A stretch of DNA of 64,000 nucleotides from Actinomycetota bacterium (GTDB lineage: Bacteria > Actinomycetota > Thermoleophilia > Solirubrobacterales > 70-9). The DNA is taken from assembly GCA_018268655.1 (NCBI GenBank), contig JAFDWC010000002.1, forward strand, positions 2,022 through 66,021, read 5' to 3'. Under the pieces are notes generated by a model that saw nothing but the letters and a program-made list of their open reading frames with translations, was not told where the DNA came from and did no database searches. The position numbers and the translations under genes are program-made. Below are positions 26,098 through 58,635 of the stretch, one piece after another. Numbering within the stretch: position 1 is the stretch's first letter; each line of letters starts with the position of its first letter.

Positions 26098-26131
26098 CGC
26101 GCCAGACAGGATTCGAACCTGTGACCTTCGG
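26098..26131 (-). repeat. copy A of the tRNA-Arg 3' end (34/34 identical); candidate distal att site
   Basis: CGCGCCAGACAGGATTCGAACCTGTGACCTTCGG is identical to 58562-58595, in the same orientation. Preceded by a CCGCTTGG/CCAAGCGG hairpin like the one downstream of the real tRNA. Confidence 0.7.
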
Positions 26132-26169
26132 CCCCTGGACCGGGTGAATCTCGAGCGCAGTGATGATCG

Positions 26170-27096
26170 TCAGACCACGGCCAGCGGTGAGACCATCGAT
26201 GCGGTCGAGCCTTTGGTCTTGTTCGGGGCCATCACGAAGAGAAATTCGGACGCGCCCCGCTCAACCAGGGCGGCGGTCTTGATGTTCTCGAGGATGTAGG
26301 TGCCGGTCTCGGCCAGGAAGTGCTGGTGGACCACCAGGAGATGGTCCTCACGCTCGGGCGGCCATACCTCGAGACACCAGTTGTCGGCTCCGGCAAGCGA
26401 GATGCGCCGGTCGGTCAACCAATGTGCGCCATCCCATCCGAGTCCGGGCTCGAGTGCGCCGTAACGCTCGTTATCGAGCTTCCACAGCTTCGACCAGCCG
26501 GTGTGGAAGAGGACGACGTCCCCGGGCCCGATCTCAACTCCCTGGCGCTCGCACGCCGCTTCGATGTGGTCTGGATCGATCGCGAACCCCTCGACCAGCA
26601 TCTCCTCGCCGAGCAGTCCGGCGATGTCGAGGCACACTCCCTTGGCCAGCCACGGAGGGGCCTTCTCGATCCCAAGCCTGGTGAGACCCGTGGGCTCGTA
26701 GATGTCCTTGTAGTGGTGGCCGTTGTAGTGGCGACCGCCGACGCCGAGATGCCCGAGCCCGTCGAGGTGACAGCCGATCTGATAGGTCGCGCTCACCTGC
26801 TCCTCGAAGGAGGTCGGCTGGGTGGTCTCCGGGTCGAGCATGTAACCGTCGAGGGTCCAGTGGGCGAGGATCAGCTGATGCCAACCGCGCGGCGGATACG
26901 CCGGGATGCCAGGCTCGAGCAGCTGAGCGAGCTCGAGGATCTCGCCCTTCCTCGGGATCGTCAAGGCCGACATCACCCGCTCCGGGGTCAGCTCGTTGCC
27001 GGCGCCCAGTTCGTCCTCGGCGCCGTAGCGTGACGGCCACCACTGGGGGCTGTCGATCCCGTTTCCGTCGTAGCGGTGTGGAGAGTCCTCAGACAC
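26170..27096 (-). CDS. cyclase family protein (kynurenine-formamidase-like metal hydrolase fold), variant motif
   Basis: Cyclase-family layout with QIGCHLDGLGHLG in place of the usual HxGTHxDxPxH. GTG start with an AAGGAGG SD. Overlaps the permease 3' end by 8 bp. Confidence 0.7.
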   Translation of the reverse strand: MSEDSPHRYDGNGIDSPQWWPSRYGAEDELGAGNELTPERVMSALTIPRKGEILELAQLLEPGIPAYPPRGWHQLILAHWTLDGYMLDPETTQPTSFEEQVSATYQIGCHLDGLGHLGVGGRHYNGHHYKDIYEPTGLTRLGIEKAPPWLAKGVCLDIAGLLGEEMLVEGFAIDPDHIEAACERQGVEIGPGDVVLFHTGWSKLWKLDNERYGALEPGLGWDGAHWLTDRRISLAGADNWCLEVWPPEREDHLLVVHQHFLAETGTYILENIKTAALVERGASEFLFVMAPNKTKGSTASMVSPLAVV

Positions 27097-28588
27097 TGGT
27101 TCCTCCTTGGGCGGTGGTGGGCAATGCCACGGCGGGAACAGGTTCGTCCGGCGGATCGTCGTCGATGAAGACCGAACCGAGCGCCGCGACGCTCTCGGGA
27201 TCCCTGCTGCGCAGGTAAAGGAGATAGACCAATCCGAAGACCATCCATCCCAGTGCGATCCAGATCCCGGTTTTCGCCGGGTAGGCCAGCGGGGCGATCC
27301 CGAGGCCGGCGAAGTCGATTCCGAAGGAGGCGACCTCTACCGGAATGAAGATGACCGCCACCAGGATCGGGATCACGAGGTGCAGGAGCGCGTTGAATTC
27401 GGACCGACGCTCACGCCAGAAGTAGCCACCGCTGGCGAGCGAGGTGATCACGTAGATCGGGATGAAGACGATCGTCAACGCGGTACCGAAGATCGCGAAG
27501 ACGTCGAGTGGTCCACTGGTGATGAAGCCAACGACGATCCCGATCGTCAAGGTGGAAAGGATGAGCAGCACGATCGCGGCCGTAGGCGTCTCGTAGCGCG
27601 GGTGAACCTTGCTGAGGAAGCGCGGGAGGATGCCGATCCGCGCCAGCGCGAATCCCATCCGGCTGCCGGCCAGGGTCGACCCGTTGCAGCAGGCGAGGAC
27701 GCTGTTCAGGACTGCGAAGAGGACGAGGATCCCAGCCCCGCTCCAGACGTGGTTGCCGAGCTCCCGGAACGGGTCGCCGCCATTGATTTCCGAGAACCCA
27801 GACATGTGTTCGGGCCCGACGTAGACGGCCGCCGCGTAGTACACGAGCAGGTAGAAGACGCCGACACCGATCGCCGATCCGATGATTGCCAGCGGCACGT
27901 TCCGCCGCGGATGGTTCGACTCCTCGGCGATCGGTGCCGCCGCCTCGAAGCCGATGAAAGCGAGGACGGTGTAGATCATTCCGGCGACCACCGAGCCCAG
28001 GCCGTGTTCGTTGCCCACATGCGCGCCGAAGACGGACAGCGTATTACTCGATCCCGCATTGCCGATGAGGGTGAAGGCGAGGACGACGAAGATGATCATC
28101 TCGACGCCGCCGAGGATGACGCCGGCCTTGGTCGAGATTCCCACACCTCGATAGGCGAGAATCCCGATCGCGAGCGCCGCCGCGGCAGCAATGGGTGCCC
28201 ACAGCCAACTCGGCGCGCCGGAGAACTCATTGCTGATCAGCAGCCCAAAGAATCCCCAGTACAGGATCGGGATGAACGCGTAGCCCATGATCATTCCCCA
28301 GCCGGTGAGGAAGCCGAGGTTGGTCCCGACACCGTGGGTTACGTACGTGTAAAGGCCGCCGGCCGATGGCAGATGACGGCTGAGTTGACCGATGGTGATC
28401 GCCACCAGGACGATCGCGACCATTGCGACCAGAATGGTCAGCGGCGTGCTGCCGCCTGCGTACACCGTCGTGAACAACAGGCCGCTCGCCGCTCCACCAG
28501 CCGGCGCGATCGTGGTGATCGACTGGAAGAGGGTCGGGACCAATCCGACCTTGTTCGCATCCAGGTGAGTGCTCTCCTCACTGCTCAT
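27089..28588 (-). CDS. APC-family amino acid/polyamine permease
   Basis: 499 aa, 12-TM-like. N-terminal LVPTLFQSITTIAPAGG resembles the APC signature. Confidence 0.85.
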   Translation of the reverse strand: MSSEESTHLDANKVGLVPTLFQSITTIAPAGGAASGLLFTTVYAGGSTPLTILVAMVAIVLVAITIGQLSRHLPSAGGLYTYVTHGVGTNLGFLTGWGMIMGYAFIPILYWGFFGLLISNEFSGAPSWLWAPIAAAAALAIGILAYRGVGISTKAGVILGGVEMIIFVVLAFTLIGNAGSSNTLSVFGAHVGNEHGLGSVVAGMIYTVLAFIGFEAAAPIAEESNHPRRNVPLAIIGSAIGVGVFYLLVYYAAAVYVGPEHMSGFSEINGGDPFRELGNHVWSGAGILVLFAVLNSVLACCNGSTLAGSRMGFALARIGILPRFLSKVHPRYETPTAAIVLLILSTLTIGIVVGFITSGPLDVFAIFGTALTIVFIPIYVITSLASGGYFWRERRSEFNALLHLVIPILVAVIFIPVEVASFGIDFAGLGIAPLAYPAKTGIWIALGWMVFGLVYLLYLRSRDPESVAALGSVFIDDDPPDEPVPAVALPTTAQGGTSV

Positions 28589-28607
28589 TCCTTCGTAACC
28601 CCCGTGT

Positions 28608-29633
28608 TCAGGCTCTGCTCGTGGCAGAGCTCGGATCCAGTAGCGCCTTCCCGCGCCCCGCGATTCCCTGTGCGTCCAGTTCGTAGTGCCGGTAGAGATG
28701 CGTCGGCGGTCCGATCAGTGAGTACTCGTCCGCCGGCAGGCCGAGTCGCCCGAGCCTCACTCCGTCGACTCCCCCGTCGACCAGCGCGTCCGCGCAGGCG
28801 CTGGCGAGGCCGCCGTAGACGTTGTGCTCCTCGACGACCAGGAGGTGGCCGCAGCTTCGCGCGACCTCGCACAGACCATCGGCGTCGAAAGGCCGAACGG
28901 TGTGCGCATCGAGGACAGAGCACTCGATCCCGTCGGCGACGAGGAGCTCGGCCGCCTCGAGGGCGGGCGCGACGGTGATCCCGTTCGCCACGATCGCGAG
29001 GTCCGCTCCGCGGCGGAGCTCGGCGAGCTTGCCAACCTCGAAGGTCTCGGCGGCGGCGTCGTAGACGTCGGGCTCCCGTCCCCTGCCGATCCGGAAATAG
29101 ATCGGCCCGTCACGGTCGACGGTGCTCCGCAGGGCTGCCCTGGTGCTGGCGGCGTCACATGGGCAGATCACGGTCATGCCCGCCATCGCCCGCATCAGCC
29201 CCAGCTCCTCGGTCGCGTGATGAGAGGTGCCGTAGAAGCCGAGCGAGATACCGGCGTGATGGGCGAGCAGGCGTACCGGCAACCCGGGATAGGCGAGGTC
29301 GGTGCGGATCTGCTCGGCGCAGAGCAGGCCGAGAAAGCTGGCAAAGGTCGCCGCGTACGGACGCAAGCCAAAGGTCGCCATCCCGGCCGCCACCGAGACC
29401 ATGTTCTGCTCGGCGATGCCGAGGTTGTAGAAGCGCCCCGGGTGGCGCTTCTCGAAGTCGACGGTGCGGTTCGAGTACTTGAGGTCGCCGGTCAGGACGA
29501 CGATGCGCGGATCGTCGTCCGCGAGATCGGCCAGGACTTCCCCTGACACCGCCGCCCGCGAGAGCCCCTCGGAGGTTGCCATGTCCCAGCTGGCTTGGTC
29601 CGCCGGGACCGGCGCCCGGAACCGGTCAGGCAT
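28608..29633 (-). CDS. transketolase family protein, C-terminal (pyrimidine-binding) subunit
   Basis: RFYNLGIAEQNMVSVAAGMA ... TSHHATEELGLMRAMAGM are typical of the split-transketolase B subunit. Confidence 0.85.
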   Translation of the reverse strand: MPDRFRAPVPADQASWDMATSEGLSRAAVSGEVLADLADDDPRIVVLTGDLKYSNRTVDFEKRHPGRFYNLGIAEQNMVSVAAGMATFGLRPYAATFASFLGLLCAEQIRTDLAYPGLPVRLLAHHAGISLGFYGTSHHATEELGLMRAMAGMTVICPCDAASTRAALRSTVDRDGPIYFRIGRGREPDVYDAAAETFEVGKLAELRRGADLAIVANGITVAPALEAAELLVADGIECSVLDAHTVRPFDADGLCEVARSCGHLLVVEEHNVYGGLASACADALVDGGVDGVRLGRLGLPADEYSLIGPPTHLYRHYELDAQGIAGRGKALLDPSSATSRA

Positions 29634-30471
29634 CTGCCGCCAACTCCTCCAGAGCCACCTCGGCGTCGGCAGGCGCCAGGTACCCGAGGTGCCAGGTACG
29701 CGACAGCTCCATATAGCCGATGCCCTTGCCCTTGACGGTCGCCGCGATCACGCAGGTCGGCCGGCCGCGCTGCACTCGCTCGACGGAGCCGAGCACCTCC
29801 AGCAGGGCCACGGGATCGTGGCCGTCCACGTGCCGCACATCCCAGCCAAAGGAGGCGAACTTGGCGTCGATCGGCTCGACGGCCATCACCTCCTCGGTCA
29901 TGCCGTCGAGGCCCATCTGGTTGCGATCGACGATCGCGCAGAGGTTCCCGAGCTGGAAGTGGGCGGCCGCGGTGGCCGCCTCCCACACCTGGCCCTCGTT
30001 CAGCTCCTGGTCGCCGAGGAGGACCCATGGCCGCGTCTCGGCGAACCCTTCCGATCGCGCTGCGAGAGCCATGCCGACCCCGATCGAGAGACCGTGCCCG
30101 ATCGACCCCGAGGAGAAATCGACCCCGGGGACCCGGCGCATGTCGGGATGGTCCCCGAGCGGGCTCCCCAGGCGGGTGTATTCGTCCAGCCAGTCCGTCG
30201 GGAAATAGCCGCGTTCGGCGAGCAGCGGATAGAGGCCGACGGCGGCGTGGCCCTTGGAGATGATCAGCCGGTCGCGCTCAGGCGACTGCGGATCGTCGTC
30301 GATCCGCATGATCCCCGAATAGAGAGCGGCGAAAATCTCCGCGCAGGAGAAGACGCTCGTGTAGTGGCCGCTTTTCGCGATCCCGATCAGTCGAACCGTC
30401 TCGCGGCGGACGAGCGCTGCCCGCCTCCTGACCTCGGCGACCACCGCGGGGGCGGGGGCGGCCTGACTCAA
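29626..30471 (-). CDS. transketolase, N-terminal (TPP-binding) subunit
   Basis: SGHYTSVFSCAEIFAALY, GSIGHGLSIGVGMALA, LLGDQELNEGQVWEAA. The TTG start overlaps the IclR stop (TTGA). Confidence 0.85.
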   Translation of the reverse strand: MSQAAPAPAVVAEVRRRAALVRRETVRLIGIAKSGHYTSVFSCAEIFAALYSGIMRIDDDPQSPERDRLIISKGHAAVGLYPLLAERGYFPTDWLDEYTRLGSPLGDHPDMRRVPGVDFSSGSIGHGLSIGVGMALAARSEGFAETRPWVLLGDQELNEGQVWEAATAAAHFQLGNLCAIVDRNQMGLDGMTEEVMAVEPIDAKFASFGWDVRHVDGHDPVALLEVLGSVERVQRGRPTCVIAATVKGKGIGYMELSRTWHLGYLAPADAEVALEELAADA

Positions 30472-31292
30472 CGAACCGAACCCCCCGAGGACGAAGCTGA
30501 CGCGGCCTCGCTCCCTTCGTGGCCAAGCCCGGCGGAGATCTCCCTTGCGCCGGTCACGATCAGGTCGCGGACTCCCTTCTGCTCATCGAGGATCATGTCC
30601 CGGACCCCGCTCGCCGAGAGGGCGGCGCAGATCCTGCCCCGACCATCGAAGACCGGAGCACCAAGCGCCGCGATCCCCGGCGTCACGTCCTGGTCGGAGG
30701 TCGCGTATCCGTCGGAGCGAATCTGCTCGAGCTCGGCGATCAGCCAGGCGGCTGTCAGCGCGGGTCCTCCGCCCCCCTGCTCGAGGTCGCTGCCGGCCAC
30801 GTACTCGTGCCAGTTCTCCCGCGGCTCGTACGCGAGCAACGTTCGTGGCGCGGCACCGAGATGGAGCGGCAGCGAGCCACCGAGCTGCAGCGCGAGCGTG
30901 TTCACCTGGCGCCCGTCGAAGCGCTCGATGCAAACCGCCTCGTCGCCCCGCCGCAGGCAGAGGAAGATCGTGTCGTCGGTCTCGTCATGGATCCGCTCCA
31001 TCACCGGCAGGGCGATCTCGCGAACATCGAGTCGTGCCTGCACCGCGGTGCCGAGCCGCAGCAGCTTGAGCCCGAGTCGATGGGTTCCGCGGCGTGAGCC
31101 CGGGTCGACGAACCCGAGTTGCTGCAGGGTCGAGAGCATCCGGTAGACGGAGCTGCGCGGCTCGTCGAGGTCCTCGGCCAGCTCGGCGGCCGTGGCCTCC
31201 CGCCTGGCAGAGAGGAGATCGAGCAACGCCGCCGCTTTGGCGAGCGTCTGCAGGGTGTTGTCGGCGGAGCTTCGCGCCATCAGATCAGGCAC
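30468..31292 (-). CDS. IclR family transcriptional regulator
   Basis: N-terminal wHTH (TAAELAEDLDEPRSSVYRMLSTLQQLGFV) plus an IclR effector domain. Start GTG 31292 or ATG 31280. Confidence 0.85.
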   Translation of the reverse strand: MPDLMARSSADNTLQTLAKAAALLDLLSARREATAAELAEDLDEPRSSVYRMLSTLQQLGFVDPGSRRGTHRLGLKLLRLGTAVQARLDVREIALPVMERIHDETDDTIFLCLRRGDEAVCIERFDGRQVNTLALQLGGSLPLHLGAAPRTLLAYEPRENWHEYVAGSDLEQGGGGPALTAAWLIAELEQIRSDGYATSDQDVTPGIAALGAPVFDGRGRICAALSASGVRDMILDEQKGVRDLIVTGAREISAGLGHEGSEAASASSSGGSVR

Positions 31293-31411
31293 ACCCCGGG
31301 GCTCGGCGCCGGCCGCGACTTGTTCTCGTTATGCAGAGCATCAGTCCACATGACAGATCCTTTTGTACCAGATTTCGGACACGCTGTCTGGAATACGATA
31401 ATGTATTGCCC

Positions 31412-32692
31412 ATGGGAGCACTCGAAGGCAGCCACCTCTGGCATCCGTTCGCCGACATGACCGCAGTGATCGGCAACGAGCTCGTAATCGATCGCGCCGA
31501 GGGCGTCTGGCTCTGGGATGAGGAGGGGAACCGCTACCTCGACGCGACCTCGGGCCTCTGGTACGCGAACGTCGGCCACGGGCGGGCCCGTATGGCGGAG
31601 GCGATCAGCGCCCAGATCCGCCGCCTGGACGTCTACTCGACGTTCAACGACTTCACCAACCGTCCCGCCGAGGATCTCGCCGCCCGGCTCTCCGAGCTCT
31701 CCCCGCTCCCCGATGCGAAGGTCTTCCTCGGGAACGGGGGAGGCGACGGAATCGAGTCGGCGGCCAAGCTGGCGCGCCTCCACTTCGCGCTCCGGGGTGA
31801 ACCCGAGCGTCGTCACGTGATCGGCCGTGTCGATGGCTTCCACGGAGCCTTCGCCTTCGGGACCAGCATCGGCGGGATCGACGCCAACCAACGCCACTTC
31901 GGAGAGCTGGTGAGGGAGACCTCCCAGGTCGACGCCCAGTCGATCGATGCCCTGGCCGCGGAGATCGAGGCGATCGGGCCCGAACGCATCGCGGCCTTCT
32001 TCTTCGAGCCGGTGATCGGCGCCGGAGGTGTCCTCTTCCCGGCCGACGGCTACCTCCGCGACGCACTCGACCTCTGTCGCTCCCACGGCATCCTCACCGT
32101 CGCGGACGAGGTCATCTGCGCCTTCGGACGGCTGGGCGAGTGGTTCGGCGTCGAGCGCTTCGGCGTCACCCCCGACATGCTCGTCTTCGCCAAGGGAGTC
32201 ACCTCCGGCTACCTGCCGCTAGGGGGCGTGATCGTCTCCGCCGAGATCGCCGAGCCCCTCTGGTACGGAAACCCCGGCAATTCGTTCCGCCACGGAGCTA
32301 CCTACGCCGGGCATCCCACCTGCTGCGCGGCGGCCCTGACCAATCTCGAGATCCTCGAGGAGGAGGGTCTACTCGCCCGCAGCCGGGAGCTCGAGGATCC
32401 GCTCCACTCCGTGCTCGCCTCGCTCGCAGAGCACCCAACGATCGGCGAGGTACGAGCCGGCCCGGGCCTCCTCGGCGCACTCGAAATCGATCCCGCCCTC
32501 CGCGCCGAACGTCCCGCGATCGTCCTCGACACCCACCGCGCCGCCCGCCGGAACGAAGTGATGGTCCGGCCGCTCCTCGACGCGATCGCCGTCTCCCCTC
32601 CCCTGATCGTCGACCAAGCCCACCTCGACCTGATCGGTACTGGCCTGTGGGCCGCCCTCGACGAGGTCGTGGCCGACGGGGAGCCGTCCTAG
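31412..32692 (+). CDS. class-III (omega-type) PLP aminotransferase
   Basis: LWHPFADM..., YLDATSGLWYANVGHG, ADEVICAFGRLG, and FAKGVTSGYLPLGG with the PLP lysine. Confidence 0.85.
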   Translation: MGALEGSHLWHPFADMTAVIGNELVIDRAEGVWLWDEEGNRYLDATSGLWYANVGHGRARMAEAISAQIRRLDVYSTFNDFTNRPAEDLAARLSELSPLPDAKVFLGNGGGDGIESAAKLARLHFALRGEPERRHVIGRVDGFHGAFAFGTSIGGIDANQRHFGELVRETSQVDAQSIDALAAEIEAIGPERIAAFFFEPVIGAGGVLFPADGYLRDALDLCRSHGILTVADEVICAFGRLGEWFGVERFGVTPDMLVFAKGVTSGYLPLGGVIVSAEIAEPLWYGNPGNSFRHGATYAGHPTCCAAALTNLEILEEEGLLARSRELEDPLHSVLASLAEHPTIGEVRAGPGLLGALEIDPALRAERPAIVLDTHRAARRNEVMVRPLLDAIAVSPPLIVDQAHLDLIGTGLWAALDEVVADGEPS

Positions 32693-32695
32693 CCG

Positions 32696-33799
32696 ATGGC
32701 AGCCGCGCTCGAAGGCCTGAAGGTGGTGGAGTTCGCCCGGTACATATCCGGGCCCTATTGCGGCCTGATCCTTGCCGATCTCGGCGCCGAGGTGATCAAG
32801 GTCGAGACCCCCGGCGGCGATCCGTCGCGTCGCGAGGGGCCGTGGGTCGGAGACAGGAGCGGCTACTTCGCCCAGATGAACCGAAACAAGCGTGGCGTCG
32901 TCCTCGACACCAGGGCCGAGGACGGAAAGGCGGAGCTGAGGAGACTGCTCGGCGAGGCCGACGTCTTCATCGAGAACTTCCGGCCGGGGATCCTGTCCGC
33001 GATGGGGTTCGGGCCCGAGGAACTCGAGCAACTGAACCCTCGGCTCATCTCCGCCAGCGTCTCGGGCTTCGGATCCGATTCGCCGCTCGGCGACCGCGCC
33101 GCGTTCGACTGCATCCTGCAGTCCCTCAGCGGTCTCGCCTGGACCACCGGCGGCGCCGACGACGACGAGCCGCTTCTGATCGGCACCTATCTCGTCGACG
33201 TCGCCGCCGGCCTGACGGCGGCCATCGGGGTTCTCGCGGCGCTCGTTCAACGTGCGGGCGACGAGCTCGGTCAGCACGTGGACGTGACCATGGTCGACGC
33301 GGCGCTGGCCATGCTCGGGGTCGAGGCGATCGCCGCGACGGTCGGCGAGGATCCCCCGCGGATGCGCAATCACGACCGCACCTCCGCCCCGGCCAACGCC
33401 TACCAGGCAAGCGACGGCTGGATCTACGTCCACGCCGGCCCCGACCACTTCTGGCAACGAGCGATGGAGGTCACCGATCAGCCGCATGCGCTCGAGCTCC
33501 CAGAGCTGGCGACCGAGTCGGCCCGGGTCGAGAACCGCGAGCTCGGGGACGGCTTCCTGGCTTCCTGGATAAGGCACCACACGGTCGCGGAGGGGATCGA
33601 GGCGTTCTCCTCGGCAGGGGTGCCGGTGGCGAAGATCAACACCGTCACCGAGGCACTCGCGGATCCGGAGCTGGGGATCGCCGAGCGAATGACGACCTTC
33701 ACCGACGGTGATGGGAACGAGTTCACCGCCCCCCTCTCGCCCCTCCGCCTGAGCCGCTCGCCGATCATCCAGCGGCACGGCGTCCCGGACCTCGACTGA
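32696..33799 (+). CDS. family III CoA-transferase (CaiB/BaiF)
   Basis: LEGLKVVEFARYISGPYCGLILADLGAEVIKVE, NRNKRGVVLD, ENFRPG. Confidence 0.85.
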   Translation: MAAALEGLKVVEFARYISGPYCGLILADLGAEVIKVETPGGDPSRREGPWVGDRSGYFAQMNRNKRGVVLDTRAEDGKAELRRLLGEADVFIENFRPGILSAMGFGPEELEQLNPRLISASVSGFGSDSPLGDRAAFDCILQSLSGLAWTTGGADDDEPLLIGTYLVDVAAGLTAAIGVLAALVQRAGDELGQHVDVTMVDAALAMLGVEAIAATVGEDPPRMRNHDRTSAPANAYQASDGWIYVHAGPDHFWQRAMEVTDQPHALELPELATESARVENRELGDGFLASWIRHHTVAEGIEAFSSAGVPVAKINTVTEALADPELGIAERMTTFTDGDGNEFTAPLSPLRLSRSPIIQRHGVPDLD

Positions 33800-34545
33800 T
33801 GAGCGCGCCGACCGGGCTCGTTACAGGCGGGACCCACGGGATCGGGCGCGCCTGCGTCGAGCGCCTCCTCGAAGACGGTTGGCAGGTCGCCTTCACCGGC
33901 CGCGACGCCGAGGCCGGCCGAGCGCTCGCCGAACTCGGAGGCGCGACGTTTCTCGAGTGCGACGTGACCGATGACGCGGCGCTCGAGCATGCCGTCGCCG
34001 CAGCGGTGTCGCTCGGCCAGGGGAGCCTGGCCGGCCTGGTGAACAACGCCGGGATCACTCGACGGGCCGACTTCGGAGACACGGAGGTCATCGATTGGGA
34101 CGACCTTTTCGCGGTCAACGCGCGCGCCGCCTACCTGACGACTCGCCTCTGCCTGCCCTCGCTTCGCCAGGCGGCCGGAGCGGTCGTCAACGTCGCCTCC
34201 GTCGCCGGCGCCACCGGCGAGGAGGGCCTCAGCATCTACAGCGCGACGAAGGGCGCGCTGATCACGCTCACCGAATCGCTCGCCCTGGAGCTCGGTCCGG
34301 CGATCAGGGTCAACGCCGTCTGCCCGGGCCAGATCGCGACCCGGATCATGAGTCGGGTCACGAACGATCCGGAGAGCAGCCGCCGCGTCTGCCGGCGGAT
34401 CCCGGCGGGGCGGCTCGGCCGCCCGGATGAGGTGGCGGCCGTAATCGCCTGGCTCCTGTCCGCTGAGGCCTCCTATGTCAACGGGGTGGCGCTGAAAGTC
34501 GACGGCGGCGAGACGGCCGGCATCCGATCCGAGCGGGAGGACTGA
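33799..34545 (+). CDS. SDR family oxidoreductase
   Basis: VTGGTHGIGRA, NNAG, YSATKGA catalytic YxxxK. The ATG shares 1 nt with the upstream stop. Confidence 0.85.
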   Translation: MSAPTGLVTGGTHGIGRACVERLLEDGWQVAFTGRDAEAGRALAELGGATFLECDVTDDAALEHAVAAAVSLGQGSLAGLVNNAGITRRADFGDTEVIDWDDLFAVNARAAYLTTRLCLPSLRQAAGAVVNVASVAGATGEEGLSIYSATKGALITLTESLALELGPAIRVNAVCPGQIATRIMSRVTNDPESSRRVCRRIPAGRLGRPDEVAAVIAWLLSAEASYVNGVALKVDGGETAGIRSERED

Positions 34546-34549
34546 AGAG

Positions 34550-35485
34550 ATGGACTGGACCCTGGCCGGCAAGGACCTCAAGGAGGCGACCTTCGAGGCG
34601 ATGGAGGTGGGCGAGCGACTGGGACCGATCGAGGTCGTCGTCGACGATCACTATGTCAAGCAGTTCGCGTTCGCCGTCGACGACTACGCCCCGATCTCCA
34701 ACGGCGAGGCCAGCAGCGCCCACGCGGCGATCCTCGTCCCCGAGCTGCTCCGTCTCCTGAACGTCAACTATGACCCCAATACCGAAGTCGGCCTCCACCA
34801 GCGCGAGGAGGTCTGGATCCAATCCCTCCCCCGGGTCGGCGAGCGGGTGACCCTGGTCGGCGAGTTCGTCGACAAGTTCGTCAAACGGGAAAAGGGCTAC
34901 GTCGTCACCGACGCCTCGGCCCACTCGGCCGAGGACGGCCGGCTGCTGGTGAGGCACCGCTCCACCGAGGTCGCCAAGGTCGACGAAGACGTGGTCATGG
35001 CCTCGGGCTCCGCCGCGAAGCCGTCGCGGTCGGTCAACGGCGAGTACCCGACCGACCGACCGCCGGCCAAGTCCTACGAGCCCGAGCTCCCGCCGGGCAC
35101 CCCCTTCCTCGGACCGACCAAGTACCTCCACCAGGATCAGATCTCTGTCTTCTCCAACGTCGGCTACTTCTGGCGGACCATCCACACCGATCTCGACGCC
35201 GCGGCGAAGGCCGGGTCGAATCGGACGATCGCTCAGGGCCTGATGGAGGCGATGTACATCTCCGAGCTCGGCTCCGCAATCTTCGGCTCCGCCTGGGCAC
35301 GGTCAGGCTGGATGTCGCTCGTGTTCCTGGCCCCGGTCTACCCGAACGACACCGTGGTCGCCAAAGCCGTTCTCCTCTCGCCCGACGCTCGAGAAGATCC
35401 CGAACGCGTCGAGCTCGAGAGCTGGGTGGAGAATCAGGACGGAACGAAGGTCGCCGTTGGATGGATCGGCGCCACGGTCCCTTGA
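34550..35485 (+). CDS. MaoC-like double hot-dog (R-specific enoyl-CoA hydratase/dehydratase-like) protein
   Basis: 311 aa with two hot-dog-like halves. The C-terminal half carries FWRTIHTDLDAAAKAGSNRTIAQG (MaoC motif-like). Confidence 0.65.
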   Translation: MDWTLAGKDLKEATFEAMEVGERLGPIEVVVDDHYVKQFAFAVDDYAPISNGEASSAHAAILVPELLRLLNVNYDPNTEVGLHQREEVWIQSLPRVGERVTLVGEFVDKFVKREKGYVVTDASAHSAEDGRLLVRHRSTEVAKVDEDVVMASGSAAKPSRSVNGEYPTDRPPAKSYEPELPPGTPFLGPTKYLHQDQISVFSNVGYFWRTIHTDLDAAAKAGSNRTIAQGLMEAMYISELGSAIFGSAWARSGWMSLVFLAPVYPNDTVVAKAVLLSPDAREDPERVELESWVENQDGTKVAVGWIGATVP

Positions 35486-35579
35486 GGCACAGCGTCCGCT
35501 GACGCCGACCGCAGTCCACGGACGTCACCTCGCCTGGCTGCAGACAATCGACGTCCACCAGCTCTTGAACCGACCCCGG

Positions 35580-35605
35580 GGCGCCGGCGGGCGAAATCCG
35601 GCGCC
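35580..35605. terminator. bidirectional terminator-like hairpin between convergent genes
   Basis: GGCGCCGG-10 nt-CCGGCGCC, a perfect 8-bp GC stem. Confidence 0.35.
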
Positions 35606-35784
35606 TAGCTCTCGTCGACGCCCAGGACCCGCCAGACGAGCGGGGCGTCGGCGGCGATCCGGTCGAGCTCGCGATCGGCGTTGACGGCGAGGCTCGAGAG
35701 CAGCTCGGCGCGATCGGTGGCCGCGAAGCCGGCGAGACCCTCACCGAGGGCGAGCAGCCATTTGCCGTCGTGGTCGACCAGCAT
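35605..35784 (-). CDS. small hypothetical protein (59 aa)
   Basis: GAGGAG SD 7 nt before the ATG at 35784, and high GC3. No family recognised. Lies just downstream of tRNA-fragment copy B. Confidence 0.35.
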   Translation of the reverse strand: MLVDHDGKWLLALGEGLAGFAATDRAELLSSLAVNADRELDRIAADAPLVWRVLGVDES

Positions 35785-35904
35785 CGCCGGCTCCTCGCCG
35801 CCCGACCCACACATCAGACCGCGACCTGCCCCACGGCCCTCTTCGAGCCAGCAGAAGAACCGCCAAAACCCCGTAATCCCGCTTCCCAAGCGGAATCCCG
35901 CGAA

Positions 35905-35951
35905 CGCTCCAGACAGGATTCGAACCCATGACCTTCGGTTTCGTAGTCCGG
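35905..35951 (-). repeat. copy B of the tRNA-Arg 3' half (42/47 identical); candidate att site
   Basis: CGCTCCAGACAGGATTCGAACCCATGACCTTCGGTTTCGTAGTCCGG versus 58562-58608. Covers the anticodon arm through the discriminator. No 5' half present. Confidence 0.7.
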
Positions 35952-36008
35952 CAACGGAGCGTTGCATCTGTGTGGCGCCTTGCCCCAGTTCTTGCCCCAG
36001 GGCAGTTG

Positions 36009-36275
36009 TCAGCGGTCGTAAGCGCGGCCTCGCGGCAGCACTCGCAGAACCGTGATCTCGCGGCTGGTCGGGTCGCGGTCAAGCCGGACCCGCCACTCGC
36101 CGACTCGGAGCCGATACTCATCCGAGGCGCTCAGCTTCCGAAGGTCGCTGCGCGGGTCATTCGCGGCGAGCCCGTCAATCGCGAGGATCACGCGCTTCGC
36201 GACCTGGCGATCTAGGCGCCGAAGATCACGCCGCGCCCGGGACGTGTAGAGAACTCGCCAGGGAGCGTCGCTCAC
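36009..36275 (-). CDS. type II toxin, RelE/ParE family
   Basis: 88 aa. YTSRARRDLRRLDRQVAKRVILAIDGLA ... YRLRVGEWRVRLDRD ... ITVLRVLPRGRAY is a typical RelE/ParE fold pattern. Confidence 0.8.
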   Translation of the reverse strand: MSDAPWRVLYTSRARRDLRRLDRQVAKRVILAIDGLAANDPRSDLRKLSASDEYRLRVGEWRVRLDRDPTSREITVLRVLPRGRAYDR

Positions 36276-36520
36276 TCGACGCCGAACTCGCGCTTGATCT
36301 CGTCCTGCGAGACACGCGGAGCGCCTGCCGCCACTTCGTCGCGAGCTTCTTGCACCGCTGCCTCCTCCTCGGGCGAGATCTCCTCGTCATCAAGAGGCGC
36401 GTCGTCTAGGCGCCGGATCATCGGATCGTCGGCACGTCCCTCGATTGCCTGGAGGGCAGCGTCCAGCTCCTCCTCCGGAAGCTCGTCCACGATGCGGTGC
36501 AATCTTTCGCGCGTCGTCAT
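36272..36520 (-). CDS. type II antitoxin (acidic, partner of RelE/ParE)
   Basis: 82 aa and highly acidic. Its stop overlaps the toxin ATG by 4 bp. Confidence 0.65.
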   Translation of the reverse strand: MTTRERLHRIVDELPEEELDAALQAIEGRADDPMIRRLDDAPLDDEEISPEEEAAVQEARDEVAAGAPRVSQDEIKREFGVE

Positions 36521-37050
36521 CGGTCCGATGGTAGCGGCGACAGGATGGTGGATCGAATGTCGATGCTCGACACAGACTCACTCGCTGGCGCTTCCACCCT
36601 CGCAACCCTCGTTGGCATCGGCCGCCCTTGGGCAGCCTCAAGGCGATGATCTACCGCGACGAAGTGCCGCGGCCGCTTCACCGATTTGCAAAATGAGGTC
36701 GCCGCGCGGAGAGGGATATGTGCGGGATATGTGTGGTGGTATCGGATTGCCTTCTCTCCCACCCTCTAAACGGCTCCCGGCGCGTTCTGCGAACTGCTGC
36801 GTCTAGAAGGTCCGAATGGCCGTCCGGCTCGGGCGGGCGCATCCTTGACCATCGGCGCCTGGTCAGACAGGGGGGCTCCGAAATGCCTTCACCTCCCTTC
36901 TCGCGGTGACCGTTGGGAGGACCGGAAAGCCCATCTCAAGGCCTTCGCGGGGAACCGTCCGCGACCTCACCTTGCCCCACGGCCCTTTCGAGCCTCCCGA
37001 GAGAACCGGCAGACCCCACAACTCCGCACTCCCAAGCGGAAAACAACCAA

Positions 37051-37097
37051 CGCGCCAGACAGGATTCGAACCTGTGACCTTCGGTTTCGTAGTCCGG
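37051..37097 (-). repeat. copy C of the tRNA-Arg 3' half (45/47 identical); candidate att site
   Basis: CGCGCCAGACAGGATTCGAACCTGTGACCTTCGGTTTCGTAGTCCGG versus 58562-58608. The flanking about 95 bp is about 80% identical to the copy B flank. Confidence 0.75.
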
Positions 37098-37238
37098 CTA
37101 CGGGGTGCGGCTGGGATGCGTGGAGCACGGTCTAGAGCGGTTTGAGCCGAGTCGAGATCTGCTGAGATCGGCTGGCATCTGCGGGGCACCTTGCCCCAGT
37201 TCTTGCCCCGGCGATCGCTCCTCGAACCGGGGTCGCCT

Positions 37239-44523: not shown

Positions 44524-45270
44524 CTACTGCGCCAGATAGCCACCGTCGACCGGCAGGATCGAGCCGGTGATGAATGAGGCGGCGTCGGACGCGAGAAAGC
44601 AGATCGCCTCCGCCACCTCCCGCGGCTCACCGAGACGGCCCATCGGGTGAGCTTCCCGCATCGGGTCCGTGTACTCGTCGGGCAGCGCCGCCACCGCCTC
44701 GGTCCTGATCGTCCCCGGGGCCACCGCGTTGACGCGGATGTTCCGCGGTGCCACCTCGATCGCCAGGTGCTTGGTGATGCCGGACGCGACGAACTTGGCC
44801 GGCCCGTAGACGGCGTTTTCGGGCTGCCCGGCGATCCCGGAGATGGACGAGAGGCAGACGATCGAGCCGCCCTCCTCGCCCATCGCTTCGACCGCGTACT
44901 TGCAGGTCAGGAACATCCCGCGGCCGTCGATCGCCATCACCCGGTCCCATTCCTCCGGGGTGGTCTCTTCGATCTTGCCTAGGGGGATGATGCCGGCGTT
45001 GGCCACCAGCGAGTCGACGCCGCCGAAAGCTTCCACCGCAGCGGCGATGATCGTCCGCGCTTCCTCCGCATCGGAGACGTCGCCGAGGGCGGTGCGGACT
45101 TCGGTCCCGTCGGGGAGCGCGGCCGCCGCCGCCTCGAGCCCCGACGCGTCGACATCGTTGAGGACGAGGCGCGCGCCCTCGCGCGCGAAGACCTCTGCGC
45201 AGGCGCGTCCGATTCCCTTCGCGGCCCCGGTGATCACCACCGACTTGCCCTCCATCCGACCCGTGCTCAT
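44524..45270 (-). CDS. SDR family oxidoreductase
   Basis: From the ATG at 45270 (GGAGGG SD): VITGAAKGIGRA, ANAG, YGPAKFV. Confidence 0.85.
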   Translation of the reverse strand: MSTGRMEGKSVVITGAAKGIGRACAEVFAREGARLVLNDVDASGLEAAAAALPDGTEVRTALGDVSDAEEARTIIAAAVEAFGGVDSLVANAGIIPLGKIEETTPEEWDRVMAIDGRGMFLTCKYAVEAMGEEGGSIVCLSSISGIAGQPENAVYGPAKFVASGITKHLAIEVAPRNIRVNAVAPGTIRTEAVAALPDEYTDPMREAHPMGRLGEPREVAEAICFLASDAASFITGSILPVDGGYLAQ

Positions 45271-46406
45271 ATGCCCTCCTGTCTCGTGTTCAAGTCGTTG
45301 CTCCATCCACGGGCCGCAACCCGCCACTCCTCGACGACCTTGCCGTCACGCAGGAGGTGAAGGCGGTCGTGGAGATTCACCACCGGGCAGGCGTGATTCG
45401 GCACCACCCGGACCCGATCCCCTGGTCGCAGCGCGCACCCCGGCGAAGCGGCGGCGATCGCGTGCTCCTCGAAGAGCCTGCAAATCTCCACCTCGGGGTG
45501 ATCGAGGACGATGCCGAAAGCTGGCGAGCGCGGCGACGGACGCTCGGTGGTCAGCGCCTTGGAGCCGCAGTCGAGGATCAGCCGGCCCGGGGCCGGGCGC
45601 GAGACCACGGTCGCCAGGACGCTGAGAGCGCACTGCTCGAGCGCGGCGACGCCGAGCGCGACCTGGCTGGCATCGTTGAAGACGTAGTTGCCGGGGCGAA
45701 CCTCAAAGTGCTCCCGCCCCCCCGGCCGCAGCCTCGACACGGTGGGCGTGGTGCCGATGCTGAGCGCCGGCACCTCGACGCCCCGCTCGCGGAGAGCGGC
45801 GGCACTCACCTCCACTGCCGCGCGCTCGTCGGCCGCGATCCGCTCGAGCTCCGCATCGTCGGCGGCCTGGTAGGCGTGGCCGGCGAAGGTCATCAGGCCG
45901 GCGAACGGTGCGGCATCGACCTCAGTCACCACCGCGGCGACCGCGCCGGCCGCCGGCGCGCCCGACTCGCCCCCGCAGCGCCCGACACCGCAGTCAACCT
46001 CCCAGAGCCAGCCGATCCGGACCCCGGCGCCGCGGCAGGCGGCGTCGAGCGCCCGTACCTGCGCGACATCGTCGAGGGCAACCCGCACGCTCGTCCGGCG
46101 CGCCAGGGCCGCGAGGCGGTCGAGGCGCCAGCGCCCGACCGGCGGATAGGCAATGAGGACCGCGGGCGCGCCCGCCTCGGCAAAGGTCTCGGCCTCCCGC
46201 AGCGTCGCGGCGGTGACACCAACGGCGCCGTGCTCGAGCTGCCGCCGCACAAGCTCGGCCGTCTTGTGCGTCTTCGCGTGCGGCCAGAGGTCGGCCTCGG
46301 CGCGCGCCACGTGGCGCGCCATCCCCTCGAGGTTGGCGTCGAGAATCGCTTCGTCGACCAGCAGCGAAGGGGTGGCCAGCTCACGCGTGTCGGCCACGAA
46401 GCTCAT
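45267..46406 (-). CDS. D-TA/DSD1-family PLP enzyme (alanine-racemase-fold; D-threonine aldolase / D-serine or D-3-hydroxyaspartate dehydratase-like)
   Basis: From the ATG at 46406: TPSLLVDEAILDANL, and PHAKTHKT with the PLP lysine. The C-terminal beta-domain carries NHACPVVN. Confidence 0.7.
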   Translation of the reverse strand: MSFVADTRELATPSLLVDEAILDANLEGMARHVARAEADLWPHAKTHKTAELVRRQLEHGAVGVTAATLREAETFAEAGAPAVLIAYPPVGRWRLDRLAALARRTSVRVALDDVAQVRALDAACRGAGVRIGWLWEVDCGVGRCGGESGAPAAGAVAAVVTEVDAAPFAGLMTFAGHAYQAADDAELERIAADERAAVEVSAAALRERGVEVPALSIGTTPTVSRLRPGGREHFEVRPGNYVFNDASQVALGVAALEQCALSVLATVVSRPAPGRLILDCGSKALTTERPSPRSPAFGIVLDHPEVEICRLFEEHAIAAASPGCALRPGDRVRVVPNHACPVVNLHDRLHLLRDGKVVEEWRVAARGWSNDLNTRQEGI

Positions 46407-49187: not shown

Positions 49188-49188
49188 C

Positions 49189-51800: not shown

Positions 51801-51949
51801 CTGCTCTCCTTCCCATTCACCGCCGCGTCCACCCCGGACGGGCCTGGCGAGGGTATCCGCGAGGCCGAGGTCGTCCTAGGGGCAGATCCCTTCAGGGCAC
51901 CAAGGGCGGTCCTTGGGAGGCTCGGTCGTGACGAGCTCGGTGATCGTGC

Positions 51950-54234: not shown

Positions 54235-54352
54235 CGATCAGCCGTCAAGCAAACTCGCAATCGCGGCCGCTGGCAATAAGCGATCGACTTTGCCGCGCGA
54301 AGGCAAACGCGTGTGGTCGAACCTCCCGCCATCGAGGACGATTCCCCGACGG

Positions 54353-54772
54353 ATGTCCAGCGAACCGATTTCCACGCCGCACGCGGCAGGCGCCGTAGGG
54401 GCCTACTCCCAGGGCTGGCGCGCCGGCGATTTCATCTTCGTCACCGGCACCACCCCGATCGGTCCCTCAGGCGAAATCGAGACCGCCGACGTCGGCGCCC
54501 AGACCCGCGCCGCGATTGCCAACGTAGAGGCAGTCCTCCACGCCGCCGACGCCGACCTCTCAGCGATCGTCAAGGTCATGGCCTACCTCAGCGACAGCAG
54601 CGACTTCGAGCAGTTCAACCGGGCCTACGCCGAATGCATCCCCGAGCCGCGCCCGGTGCGCACGACGATCGGGGTTGACATGGGCCAGATTCTCGGCATG
54701 AAGGTGGAGTTGGACGTAATCGCCTACGTCGAGCCCAAGGCGCCCCTCACCGACCCGAGCGCCAAGCCTTAG
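54353..54772 (+). CDS. RidA/YjgF family reactive-intermediate deaminase
   Basis: AAGAVGAYSQGWRAGDFIFVTG ... VKVMAYLSD ... PVRTTIGV. Confidence 0.85.
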   Translation: MSSEPISTPHAAGAVGAYSQGWRAGDFIFVTGTTPIGPSGEIETADVGAQTRAAIANVEAVLHAADADLSAIVKVMAYLSDSSDFEQFNRAYAECIPEPRPVRTTIGVDMGQILGMKVELDVIAYVEPKAPLTDPSAKP

Positions 54773-54813
54773 TGCCGGTAGAGCGATCGAGGCGACCGTC
54801 TGGGCGCGGCCGT

Positions 54814-55614: not shown

Positions 55615-55623
55615 CCGCGCTTC

Positions 55624-56883: not shown

Positions 56884-57002
56884 CGTGGCCGCAGAGTAGG
56901 CTCGCTCGAGAGGCGGTCAATCGCGCTGGCGCAAGCGGTCGGCCCTGAGGACGGAGCGGCACGATCCCGGCACCGAGCGGCGTCGAGAAATCCCTGCCCG
57001 GC

Positions 57003-58295
57003 TCAGGCCGGATCCAGCCCGAGCGCTTCCCGGAGGACGGGCACGCGCCGCCGGGAGACTTCGATCGGCTCGGATGAATCGGCGAGGAGGACCCAAAGGC
57101 CACCCTTGAAGCCAGGCAGTAGCTCACGCACGCGGGCCAGGTTGACCAGCGTGCGGCGGTTGACGCGGAGCAAACCGCGCGAGCCGAGGGCCCGCTCGAT
57201 CTCCTCGAGGCTGCGGCCGCGCAGGCGCAGCCGACCCTGATCGCTGTCGACCCAGATCACGCGGTCGAGGATCTCGACGAGCCGCACTTCATGGGTCTCG
57301 ACCAGCAGGATGCGGTCCCCCAGCTCGCCGGCGATCCGCCCGCCGTGAAGGCCCTCGGCACGAGGGCTCGGCTCGCCGGGCTCGGCGACGGATGCCAGGA
57401 CGCCGATCAGCTCGCGCTGCGCGGAGTAGATCGCCTCCAGCTCGACAACCCCACCGCTGTCGAGCTCCGCTGCGCCGGTCCATCCGTGCTCGGAGCGAGC
57501 CCGATCGACTATCGCCCGTGCCAGCCGCCTCAGGTTGTCCTGCGACCCGGCAAGCGCCAACCGCGCCGCCTCATCGGCGGCGACGATGCGGCCGCCGACG
57601 TCGATCGCAGCCGAGCCGAAGCGGCCCCTCGGCCGCACCCGATGGGTCGTGACGAGTTCCGACGATGCGCTCGCCGCTCGGCGGCGAAGGCGGCTCTCCA
57701 GCTCGGCCGCCGAATCCTCGAGCCAGCCCCGCGCCGCGTCGGGGAGCGGCTGCTTGAAGACGGTTACCGAAAGGCTGCCCACCGGCTCCGCGGTCGTCGG
57801 GTCGCTGATCGCAACCGCCGCGCAGCTCCAGGGATGGAAGCCCGAGCACCAGTGCTCGAAGCGATGGACCTCGGTGATCCCGCCGGTCGCCAGCGCGGTT
57901 CCGATCGCCGAGGTTCCCGCCATCGGCTCGCTCCAAGCGAAGGCAGGGCCGAAATTCTGCGCCCGCGCCCGCTCCAGCGTGTCCTGATGCCCCCAACCCG
58001 CCAGCACGCGCCCTTCGCCATCGGCAGCCGAGATCGCAGCGGAGCTTCCGACTGCGCGGGCGGCGATCGCCGCCGCGGCCGCTCCGAGCTCGGCGGCGAG
58101 CACGCCCTGTTCGGGCCCCTGCCAGCCGGGCTCGGTCGCCGTTGGCGCGTGGGTCAAGGTCGGGTCGACGCCATATCGATCCCGGCAGCGATGCCAGGAC
58201 CGCAGGACTTCCGGGCGAACGCCGGGAAGGGTCGGCTCGCCGGCAACGAAGCGCTCCCAGGCATCGCCCGTCGCCGCCGTTGCTTCGAAGGCCAT
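57003..58295 (-). CDS. transcriptional regulator with GAF-like sensory N-terminus and C-terminal LytTR DNA-binding domain
   Basis: N-terminus W..F..G.....VRPEVLRSWHRCRDRYGVDP (AcoR-like). C-terminus LLRVNRRTLVNLARVRELL...IEVSRRR (LytTR pattern). Confidence 0.6.
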   Translation of the reverse strand: MAFEATAATGDAWERFVAGEPTLPGVRPEVLRSWHRCRDRYGVDPTLTHAPTATEPGWQGPEQGVLAAELGAAAAAIAARAVGSSAAISAADGEGRVLAGWGHQDTLERARAQNFGPAFAWSEPMAGTSAIGTALATGGITEVHRFEHWCSGFHPWSCAAVAISDPTTAEPVGSLSVTVFKQPLPDAARGWLEDSAAELESRLRRRAASASSELVTTHRVRPRGRFGSAAIDVGGRIVAADEAARLALAGSQDNLRRLARAIVDRARSEHGWTGAAELDSGGVVELEAIYSAQRELIGVLASVAEPGEPSPRAEGLHGGRIAGELGDRILLVETHEVRLVEILDRVIWVDSDQGRLRLRGRSLEEIERALGSRGLLRVNRRTLVNLARVRELLPGFKGGLWVLLADSSEPIEVSRRRVPVLREALGLDPA

Positions 58296-58561
58296 CGCCC
58301 CATGCTTGACCTTTGCCGAACCGGCGTCAAGGGGGGTCGGGCTGGCGATCGCACCTACAAGGCGCCGTCAGCGGTGATGGCATCGTGGATGTGCTCGTGG
58401 TAGCGGCGAGCCAAGCGCTCGCCGCCGCCGACCGTGAGCCGCGTCGGCGGAACGAGCGTCGGGCTCACCTTGCCCCAGGGCTTGCCCCACGGCCCTTTTT
58501 GCAGACGATTGTCACGGCCTGAACGGAGTTGATTCCGCATCCCCAAGCGGAAAACGACCAA

Positions 58562-58635
58562 CGCGCCAGACAGGATTCGAACCTGTGACCTTCGGTTTCG
58601 TAGACCGACGCTCTATCCGGCTGAGCTACTGGCGC
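58562..58635 (-). tRNA. tRNA-Arg (anticodon ACG)
   Basis: The reverse complement folds as a 74-nt cloverleaf: GCGCCAG-TA-GCTC-AGCCGGATA-GAGC-G-TCGGT-CTACGAA-ACCGA-AGGTC-ACAGG-TTCGAAT-CCTGT-CTGGCGC-G. No encoded CCA. Confidence 0.9.

Follow-up and report, generated by a model that had tools for sequence, protein, structure and literature searches.

A 64-kb window of contig JAFDWC010000002.1, from a metagenome-assembled genome (MAG) of a Solirubrobacterales-type soil actinobacterial lineage, carries an intact tRNA-Arg(ACG) gene on its minus strand (58562–58635; identified by ARAGORN and by the Rfam tRNA model at 72 bits), one of only two tRNA genes that Rfam finds in the window, the whole stretch of DNA analysed here. 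Three partial copies of the gene, all downstream of its 3′ end and in direct orientation, divide the adjoining DNA into segments E3 (37098–58561, minus strand, 21,464 nt), E2 (35952–37050, minus strand, 1,099 nt) and E1 (26132–35904, no strand assigned, 9,773 nt), which together we call the block. E3 and E1 hold only cargo genes, and E2 holds a toxin–antitoxin (TA) pair between two arm-like sequences. The block is probably a tandem array of relic elements bounded by attachment (att) sites and devoid of integrases.

The last 47 nt of tRNA-Arg (58562–58608; the plus strand carries the reverse complement) recur at 37051–37097 (45/47 identical by alignment) and at 35905–35951 (42/47), and the last 34 nt recur at 26098–26131 (34/34). 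A search of the whole window with the 34-nt 3′ segment, allowing up to three mismatches, returns only the positions 26098, 35905 (three mismatches), 37051 and 58562, all on the same strand, and none of 100 dinucleotide-preserving shuffles contains any match. The partial copies sit in intergenic DNA, and their identity begins at the anticodon loop. Nothing resembling a tRNA 5′ half lies beside them: identities there are 5/27, 9/27 and 6/40, no better than in shuffles, and local alignments score no higher than those of shuffled sequence, so the mark of decayed tandem tRNA genes is missing. An earlier note on this DNA had reported both the three direct copies and their lack of 5′ halves, and we find the same; its statement that the identity ends at the tRNA 3′ end needs correction, as the identity runs on for ~20 nt in all four copies (plus strand CCCAAGCGGAA..C..C.AA). 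By blastn, the tRNA region aligns with the 37051 copy over 62 nt at 98.4% and with the 26098 copy over 54 nt at 94%. With this extension, the att identity covers 58562–58608 plus 58542–58561 at the tRNA-proximal, attL-like end, 37031–37097 at the E3/E2 junction, 35884–35951 at the E2/E1 junction and, with one 1-nt gap in the extension, 26079–26131 at the outermost copy; all three partial copies are on the minus strand.

The extension is one half of a predicted hairpin, TTCCGC-loop-GCGGAA on the tRNA strand, which directly follows tRNA-Arg and each copy (58520–58561, 37009–37050, 35863–35904 and 26050–26097) and is built on CCGCTTGG and CCAAGCGG. It is retained at every copy, in part through G–U changes, with a different partner arm at 26098, and stands likewise behind tRNA-Arg in three other contigs discussed below (L003, L005 and L007). 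Its computed stability exceeds that of shuffles at 35905 and in L007 only. We treat the hairpin as a conserved sequence feature with a predicted structure; it may be a tRNA terminator or processing signal that elements copied along with the 3′ part of the tRNA.

Beyond the cores lie arms that share a 9-mer, CTTGCCCCA (TGGGGCAAG on the tRNA strand). Six exact occurrences fall in the 64 kb (35979, 35991, 36971, 37190, 58469 and 58481), where 0.31 are expected and none of 100 shuffles reaches six; variants stand at 35825 and 37202. All of them, variants included, share one orientation and lie within ~110 nt of a tRNA copy. Each segment starts with a P′-type arm on the minus strand that contains the hairpin, together with two repeats in E3 (arm 58462–58561; repeats 58469–58477 and 58481–58489), one repeat in E2 (arm 36951–37050; repeat 36971–36979, 52 nt from CCAAGCGGAA) and the variant CCTGCCCCA in E1 (arm 35805–35904; repeat 35825–35833). 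The distance between repeat and CCAAGCGGAA is 52–53 nt at all three sites (58562, 37051 and 35905). Within the window, the tRNA-proximal arm is homologous to the 37051 and 35905 arms across 100 nt (z = 7–8), and the 100 nt beyond the core are homologous among these three sites and L007 (z = 7–10). P-type arms, also on the minus strand, close the distal ends of E3 (37098–37215, with tandem repeats at 37190–37198 and 37202–37210, spaced by 12 nt) and of E2 (35952–36008, with tandem repeats at 35979–35987 and 35991–35999); the latter is a short version, with 57 nt less than the 37098 arm. On this P side of 37051 and 35905, the two repeats lie 12 nt apart within a common block, C(C/T)GGGGCAAGAACTGGGGCAAGG(T/C)GCC.C.CAGAT.

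Read in the orientation of the tRNA, both inner junctions therefore have the order P arm–core–P′ arm, a complete attP-like layout and the one that tandem integration of related elements must produce, and tRNA-Arg itself carries a P′ arm only, as an attL-like site. From where they stand, the 9-mers may be arm-type binding sites for an integrase or its directionality factor. The 26098 copy is of another kind. It has neither a P nor a P′ arm, a different hairpin follows it, no 9-mer lies near 26132, leaving the distal end of E1 with no recognisable P arm, and the 100 nt beyond it compare with the P′ arms at z values of only 2–3.7, that is, as a non-homologous flank. Such a flank fits an original chromosomal flank retained at this place, and the sequence makes the 26098 copy a candidate for the original displaced tRNA 3′ end.

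The cargo of the two long segments is catabolic in appearance. By Pfam, E3 encodes a LytTR-domain regulator, P450, hydrolase, RidA, Ldh_2, Fe-ADH, DHDPS-like protein and cyclase; a proline-racemase-like protein, ILVD/EDD dehydratase, D-Ser-dehydratase-like protein and SDR; and a LysR regulator, permease, aldehyde dehydrogenase and GMC oxidoreductase, a set that looks like amino-acid or hydroxyproline-type catabolism. E1 encodes a cyclase, an amino-acid permease, a split transketolase, an IclR regulator, a class-III aminotransferase, a CoA-transferase III, an SDR and MaoC. A possible small open reading frame (ORF) of ~60 amino acids (35605–35790, minus strand; ..MLVDHDGKWLLALGEGLAGFAATDRAELLSSLAVNADRELDRIAADAPLVWRVLGVDES) lies just inside the start of E1, beside the P′ arm; it has no family match, and its coding signal is ambiguous. 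E2 has no genes other than a ParE-family toxin (36009–36275, minus strand) and its antitoxin (36272–36520, minus strand), separated from the P′ arm by ~440 nt of non-coding DNA, possibly the scar of a deletion. E2 resembles an element pared down to the TA module at its end.

No recombination or transfer gene accompanies this cargo. A Pfam scan of ~60 ORFs, covering all predicted genes at 21.7–62.2 kb and most of those at 5.7–21.7 kb, detects no integrase, excisionase, relaxase, FtsK/Tra protein, transposase or phage gene; among the block ORFs it detects no Rep, FtsK/SpoIIIE or Tra domain and no phage structural, packaging or lysis family. NCBIfam adds nothing for the ORFs with no Pfam match, six-frame translations of the unannotated junction gaps contain no Pfam match at E ≤ 0.1 and no recombinase remnant, and the segments hold no remnant found by us of the backbone of an integrative and conjugative element (ICE) or integrative and mobilizable element (IME). 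The integrase and Xis-like protein of a relative's element (L005, below) likewise find nothing credible in the window by tblastn. The sole match pairs the C-terminal ~50 residues of that integrase (L005:1097–2188) with 58510–58656, across the tRNA-Arg sequence, at 31% identity and E = 0.04. Some integrase genes, those of Mx8 and SSV, do reach across attP (PMC4383910); the match is weak, and we take it to be probably chance. Both the want of recombinase and transfer genes and the presence of a TA pair had been read from the sequence in the earlier note, and these searches bear them out.

Composition also sets the block apart, at odds with the uniform GC content previously reported for it. GC content is 0.65–0.70 in the block and 0.72–0.73 in the flanks, and GC at third codon positions (GC3) is 0.81–0.92 in block genes (E3, 0.81–0.92; E1, 0.83–0.89) and 0.91–0.97 in both flanks. 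Unlike GC3, tetranucleotide correlations give no clean separation of block and flank. To the left of the block, a second stretch of lower GC content (0.687) at 9600–19000 encodes nitrile hydratase alpha and beta subunits, an ArsR/AHSA1 pair, an AAA_14/DUF4143 ATPase and several ORFs with no family match; it has no tRNA or repeat at its ends and may be another acquired region.

We compared the locus with its relatives, searching from the right side with DUF4442 homologs and from the left side with TetR homologs, in each case together with their contigs. Eight related contigs share the upstream side of the tRNA, namely pyk, enoyl-CoA hydratase, DUF4442, with or without DoxX, and then tRNA-Arg, at 82–93% amino-acid identity. 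The right flank is thus conserved up to the tRNA. Six of these relatives have readable sequence on the downstream side, which differs each time and never matches the window: for example, L001 has a methyltransferase and sigma-factor region, L010 an AIPR/Fic defence-like set, L011 and L012 two different catabolic sets, and L013 a 1,363-aa protein. The tRNA-Arg gene is therefore a sharp synteny break and a hypervariable site. The other two of the eight (L008 and L009) end ~126 nt past tRNA-Arg, which makes their downstream DNA unreadable, and a ninth contig (L014) stops inside the gene; such breaks in three independent assemblies suggest repeats or strain variation at this site in these relatives too. 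On the left flank, only an MFS–TetR gene pair (21.8–23.9 kb) is syntenic, with two relatives.

The upstream side shows variation of its own. DoxX (58668–59210 in the window) lies between DUF4442 and tRNA-Arg in the window and in L008–L012; in L001, L007 and L013 it is absent and DUF4442 directly abuts tRNA-Arg, a second indel, on the 5′ side of the tRNA. A P450 gene lies between tRNA-Ser(gct) and pyk in L008 and L010–L013, the L013 contig starting too late to include the tRNA; in the window, tRNA-Ser is directly beside pyk, around 62165–62192, with no P450 gene between them. L007 has ~5.4 kb more between pyk and tRNA-Ser, and its tRNA-Ser is on the opposite strand relative to pyk.

Other genomes and metagenomes contain members or neighbours of the same att family. 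A single scan of each collection with the core pattern recovers two intact tRNA-Arg loci of relatives (L001 and L003) and an orphan fragment (L002) from genomes, and L005, L006 and L007 from metagenomes; neither scan yields a comparable array. In L007 and L006, which represent one close relative in two metagenomes, a homolog of the P′ arm comes after tRNA-Arg, and then ~740 nt that contain a single small ORF. The tandem repeat and the P-arm block 'CTGAGATCGGCT' close this unit; a core is missing, the arm abutting the stop codon of a glyoxalase gene. This 0.74-kb unit is a decayed mini-unit. The orphan fragment in L002, a Solirubrobacterales MAG, comprises ~28 nt of tRNA-Arg plus the extension (5665–5712) and lies between ferredoxin-reductase/desaturase genes and cobS/cobT; 8 kb of this locus contain no mobile genes. 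The L002 locus also encodes an SDR that is up to 86% identical in amino-acid sequence to the E3 SDR at 44524–45327 (tblastx segments, 71–86%).

Homology searches with the E2 toxin identify two further contigs, L060 and the metagenome contig L061, with TA homologs at 85–92% nucleotide identity. L061 has the antitoxin, the toxin (95% amino-acid identity) and a full-length P arm (87% identical to the 37098 arm), after which come a partial tRNA-Arg (two mismatches), the hairpin and a homolog of the P′ arm. Beyond this junction, its cargo is a 200-aa protein and a type IIG methyltransferase/endonuclease, unrelated to the window. Both window junctions and L061 share the 21-nt GGGGCAAGAACTGGGGCAAGG with no difference. 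In L060, the TA pair (toxin, 90%) adjoins a degenerate P arm (10268–10424) and there is no tRNA core. The TA pair and its P arm thus form a conserved terminus of the element, and the partners that the junction module connects vary from genome to genome. Divergence is 20% (toxin) and 39% (antitoxin) at four-fold sites of the neighbouring TA genes and 13–21% across the arms as a whole; over a small sample and ~100 nt, this degree of arm conservation is compatible with selection on the arms. Two side observations concern these loci. The TA locus of L060 adjoins genes for ThiF and Prok-E2, a set of ubiquitin-like conjugation or defence type. L061 carries, ~300 nt upstream of its E2-like TA pair and beside a DUF5343 gene, an odd 87-nt tRNA-like gene (1613–1699), called tRNA-Glu(ttc) by ARAGORN, with a long variable arm, a 7-bp acceptor stem and a T arm; it could be a class-II tRNA of unusual form, a Sec-like tRNA or a tRNA borne by an element.

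An integrase does accompany the same target in L005 (GC content, 61.5%), which encodes an IS110-type transposase fragment, an HTH_17 Xis-like protein, a Phage_integrase protein and an IrrE/XRE pair and terminates in a partial tRNA-Arg whose boundary falls at the same place in the anticodon loop (..CCTACGAAACCGAAGG) and which continues through the hairpin. Tyrosine-integrase elements therefore use this attB in the clade. The arms of L005 have no 9-mer, which makes it a different element family at the same target. Viral and plasmid collections contribute no relatives. IMG/VR scans with the extended core and with the tRNA 3′ half give no match; those with the tandem 9-mer match 1 and then 44 loci, none of which (0/45) contains the tRNA-Arg core, and we rejected them as chance. 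The single IMG/VR locus that we inspected, L004, is unrelated phage coding sequence. A distant blastn search of PLSDB with the 37051 junction returns only ordinary tRNA-Arg genes of proteobacterial chromids.

Taken together, we favour the reading, at a probability of roughly two in three, that the block is a tandem accretion array of three integrase-less, att-bounded relics, E3, E2 and E1, that resemble cis-mobilizable elements (CIMEs). On this reading, the three units would have entered the 3′ half of tRNA-Arg(ACG) serially, through site-specific recombination of the kind that tyrosine integrases perform. The attP of each incoming DNA would have contained a duplicate of the tRNA that runs from its anticodon loop through the 3′ end, together with ~20–35 nt downstream, hairpin included. 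Recombination would have rebuilt a working tRNA from the attP copy and pushed the previous 3′ part outward, leaving three partial copies. The integrase would then have been lost, or would never have travelled with the units, and the units would be mobile only if a cognate integrase were supplied in trans. Their CIME-like character follows from all three segments having no recombinase: att sites are kept, and integration genes were lost or never carried. We infer the tyrosine-integrase origin of the junctions, how many insertions took place and in what order, and the loss of the integrase. With the best-preserved repeat, E3 may be the newest unit, and with its P arm lost, E1 may be the oldest; integration is possible at any core of an array, so this order is surmised. 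The integration model of the earlier note thereby stands in its central part, namely att-type scars in a composite, recombinase-less block, with the arms, GC3, the L061 module and the L005 element in its favour; its history of three insertions and, above all, its boundary at 26098 are inferred. A mechanism that leaves no recombinase behind, which had also been entertained, is unneeded, as integrase loss or action in trans suffices and has precedents.

Several observations weigh against this reading of the block. No cognate integrase was found in the window or in the readable DNA beside the five other family ends, and the role proposed for the 9-mers is read from their position. The earlier note had suggested searching relatives for an empty site; among those compared here we find none, nor any presence/absence polymorphism of E1, E2 or E3, so that the 26098 boundary depends on the repeat itself. 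That boundary, the weakest of the array, has further weaknesses. E1 has no P arm and its distal tRNA copy is shorter. A hypothetical gene just outside the block (25446–25964) has a block-like GC3 of 0.815, so the true outer limit may be further left, and the DNA at 24.5–26.1 kb may be older acquired DNA. Besides this hypothetical gene, the stretch at 24.0–26.0 kb encodes a cupin and an F420H2 reductase, which may or may not belong to the ancestral flank. The MFS–TetR pair has no tRNA-Arg within 10 kb in either of the two relatives that share it, and in one of these, which is on the same 751-kb contig as L001, the left flank is not beside tRNA-Arg; none of the relatives connects the tRNA with the left flank of the window. 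Finally, the window is a metagenome-assembled contig, and its contiguity across four repeats comes from assembly alone.

This last point raises an assembly artefact, in which the assembler joined strain-specific islands through the repeated att cores. The MAG origin of the contig and the breaks of L008, L009 and L014 at or inside tRNA-Arg, which mark the site as hard to assemble and strain-variable, speak for such an artefact, but the copies differ (2, 5 and 0 mismatches) and have different lengths and flanks, the longest exact repeat, at ~48 nt, is by our estimate below the largest common assembler k-mers, and L061 independently has an inner junction with island DNA on both sides; we regard a false join as very improbable. 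The proposal that the fragments are decayed tandem duplicates of tRNA-Arg, which was the alternative offered in the earlier note, can be rejected and is effectively refuted: orientation and strand do match tRNA-Arg, but 5′-half similarity is missing beside every copy, protein-coding operons fill the 1–21 kb between copies, and the 5′ side of two copies is a shared non-tRNA arm. Homologous recombination is a further way of building the array, with the repeats as RecA-dependent joints through which DNA from relatives was brought in by way of the shared tRNA and arm sequences of ~50–300 bp. Junction modules are 80–93% identical over 200–300 nt between contigs, long enough for exchange, and the cargo beside matching modules differs. 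Recombination of this kind would still require site-specific integration somewhere to create the repeats, the arms occupy the exact P and P′ positions expected of tandem integration, and the proposal alters where events occurred rather than the nature of the structure. We hold it improbable that the array arose mainly in this way.

A different view of the same junctions is that the segments are active non-autonomous cassettes, which an integrase encoded elsewhere in the genome inserts, excises and shuffles through the ~300-bp P–core–P′ junctions. The segments would then belong to an integrase-less family of Solirubrobacterales units defined by that junction, with its TGGGGCAAG repeats and its mimic of the tRNA-Arg 3′ part, and would form an integron-like array anchored at a tRNA, an idea that we consider unlikely, as we do the corollary that such an array spans everything from a 1.1-kb TA cassette to 20-kb sets of catabolic operons. 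Functionally, the array would be comparable to an integron cassette array or to staphylococcal cassette chromosome (SCC) elements with no ccr genes. The ccr-less pseudo-SCC elements of staphylococcal composite islands at orfX/rlmH are cassettes that have no recombinase and are delimited by direct target-site repeats, stand in tandem with other cassettes and can be mobilised by recombinases in trans; they differ from the block in using serine recombinases, in targeting a protein gene and in belonging to another phylum. In keeping with active cassettes, all three complete units and all readable family ends have no integrase, conservation of the arms equals or exceeds that of synonymous sites in the adjoining TA genes, and the TA and junction module has different neighbours in the window and in L061. 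Yet no candidate integrase with matching arm repeats was found, the conservation test draws on ~100 nt in a small sample, and decay is evident in L007 (P arm with no core), in L060 (degenerate P arm with no core) and in the lost P arm of E1. An integron in the strict sense was rejected, as the window has no integrase and its junctions are built of arms and a tRNA-derived core rather than of attC hairpins; a prophage was rejected too, given the missing phage structural, packaging, lysis and integrase families and the lack of an IMG/VR match to the att core.

For relics accumulated in tandem, the closest parallel is with CIMEs, which keep attL and attR yet carry genes for neither integration nor transfer, derive by decay from an ICE or IME, can be mobilised by the integrase of a related element and build up in tandem by accretion (PMC5704250). 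They were first described in ICESt1-related islands of Streptococcus thermophilus (Pavlovic et al. 2004, as cited in PMC5704250) and are reported also from Streptomyces pathogenicity islands (Zhang & Loria 2017, as cited in PMC5704250). Like them, the units of the block form a tandem series at a target gene's 3′ end, with internal att sites in between. Both att ends are kept at the sequence level, E3 and E2 as core plus P′ at one end and P plus core at the other, and E1 as cores at both ends with no P arm, and the block has no integration and no transfer genes. Our searches recovered no intact relative from this family. The block differs in that the 64-kb window contains no integrase-bearing partner ICE or IME, in that mobilisation of its units is hypothetical, and in its Solirubrobacterales-type host, its tRNA-Arg(ACG) target and the presence of a unit that is just a 1.1-kb TA cassette.

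Dehalococcoides provides a similar case, with tandem islands at ssrA that are each bounded by a direct repeat of the 3′ end of ssrA; 15 of these have no integration module and were suggested to be CIMEs, and their cargo is strain-specific (PMC3146451). The two systems have in common tandem islands behind one small RNA gene, conserved nucleotides beside the repeats and metabolic cargo. The Dehalococcoides repeat is a 20-bp piece of the tmRNA gene, and many islands carry a CcrB-like serine recombinase (PMC3146451), whereas the block has repeats of 34–67 nt of tRNA plus flank, arm repeats of the tyrosine-integrase type and no integrase-bearing island seen. By contrast, the pSAM2/SLP1-type affiliation proposed in the earlier note fails on every count of gene content. 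Integrative and conjugative elements of actinomycetes (AICEs) such as pSAM2, SLP1 and pMEA300 have modules for integration and excision, replication, FtsK-like Tra transfer and regulation (PMC2440964); the block has none of these modules and its cargo is much larger than that of a typical AICE, and since every defining gene module is missing it is not such an element.

The structure is also that which Islander looks for in tRNA genes (tDNAs), where an island is recognised by a tDNA and its displaced fragment, must contain an integrase and must be 2–200 kb long, and the fragment must stay clear of conserved protein domains (PMC4383910). Islands whose identity is centred on the anticodon (class 'A') make up 2083/3919 in that survey, and arrays of three or more are rare, with 4 cases in 2168 genomes (PMC4383910). 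The block has a regenerated tDNA with cognate displaced 3′ fragments downstream in the same orientation and with identity from the anticodon loop. E1 (9.8 kb) and E3 (21.5 kb) are within the length range and E2 (1.1 kb) is too short, and none of the three units contains a tyrosine integrase. Integrase-based finders such as Islander would reject all three, which means that this class of acquired DNA is systematically under-called.

The block offers a sequence handle on the family and its integrase, in the form of the tandem arm repeat TGGGGCAAG-N3-TGGGGCAAG, the tRNA-Arg core and the hairpin, with the junction signature TGGGGCAAGNNNTGGGGCAAG ... tRNA-Arg 3′ part ... hairpin ... TGGGGCAAG. The structure itself is of a known type, here in a new example from a little-studied soil actinobacterial lineage, and as it stands it is a clear, unsurprising case of island accretion and decay. 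Were the units mobilised in trans, they would amount to a cassette-like gene-capture system at a tRNA gene. In either event, the block shows a poorly known Solirubrobacterales-type lineage stacking catabolic operons behind one tRNA gene.

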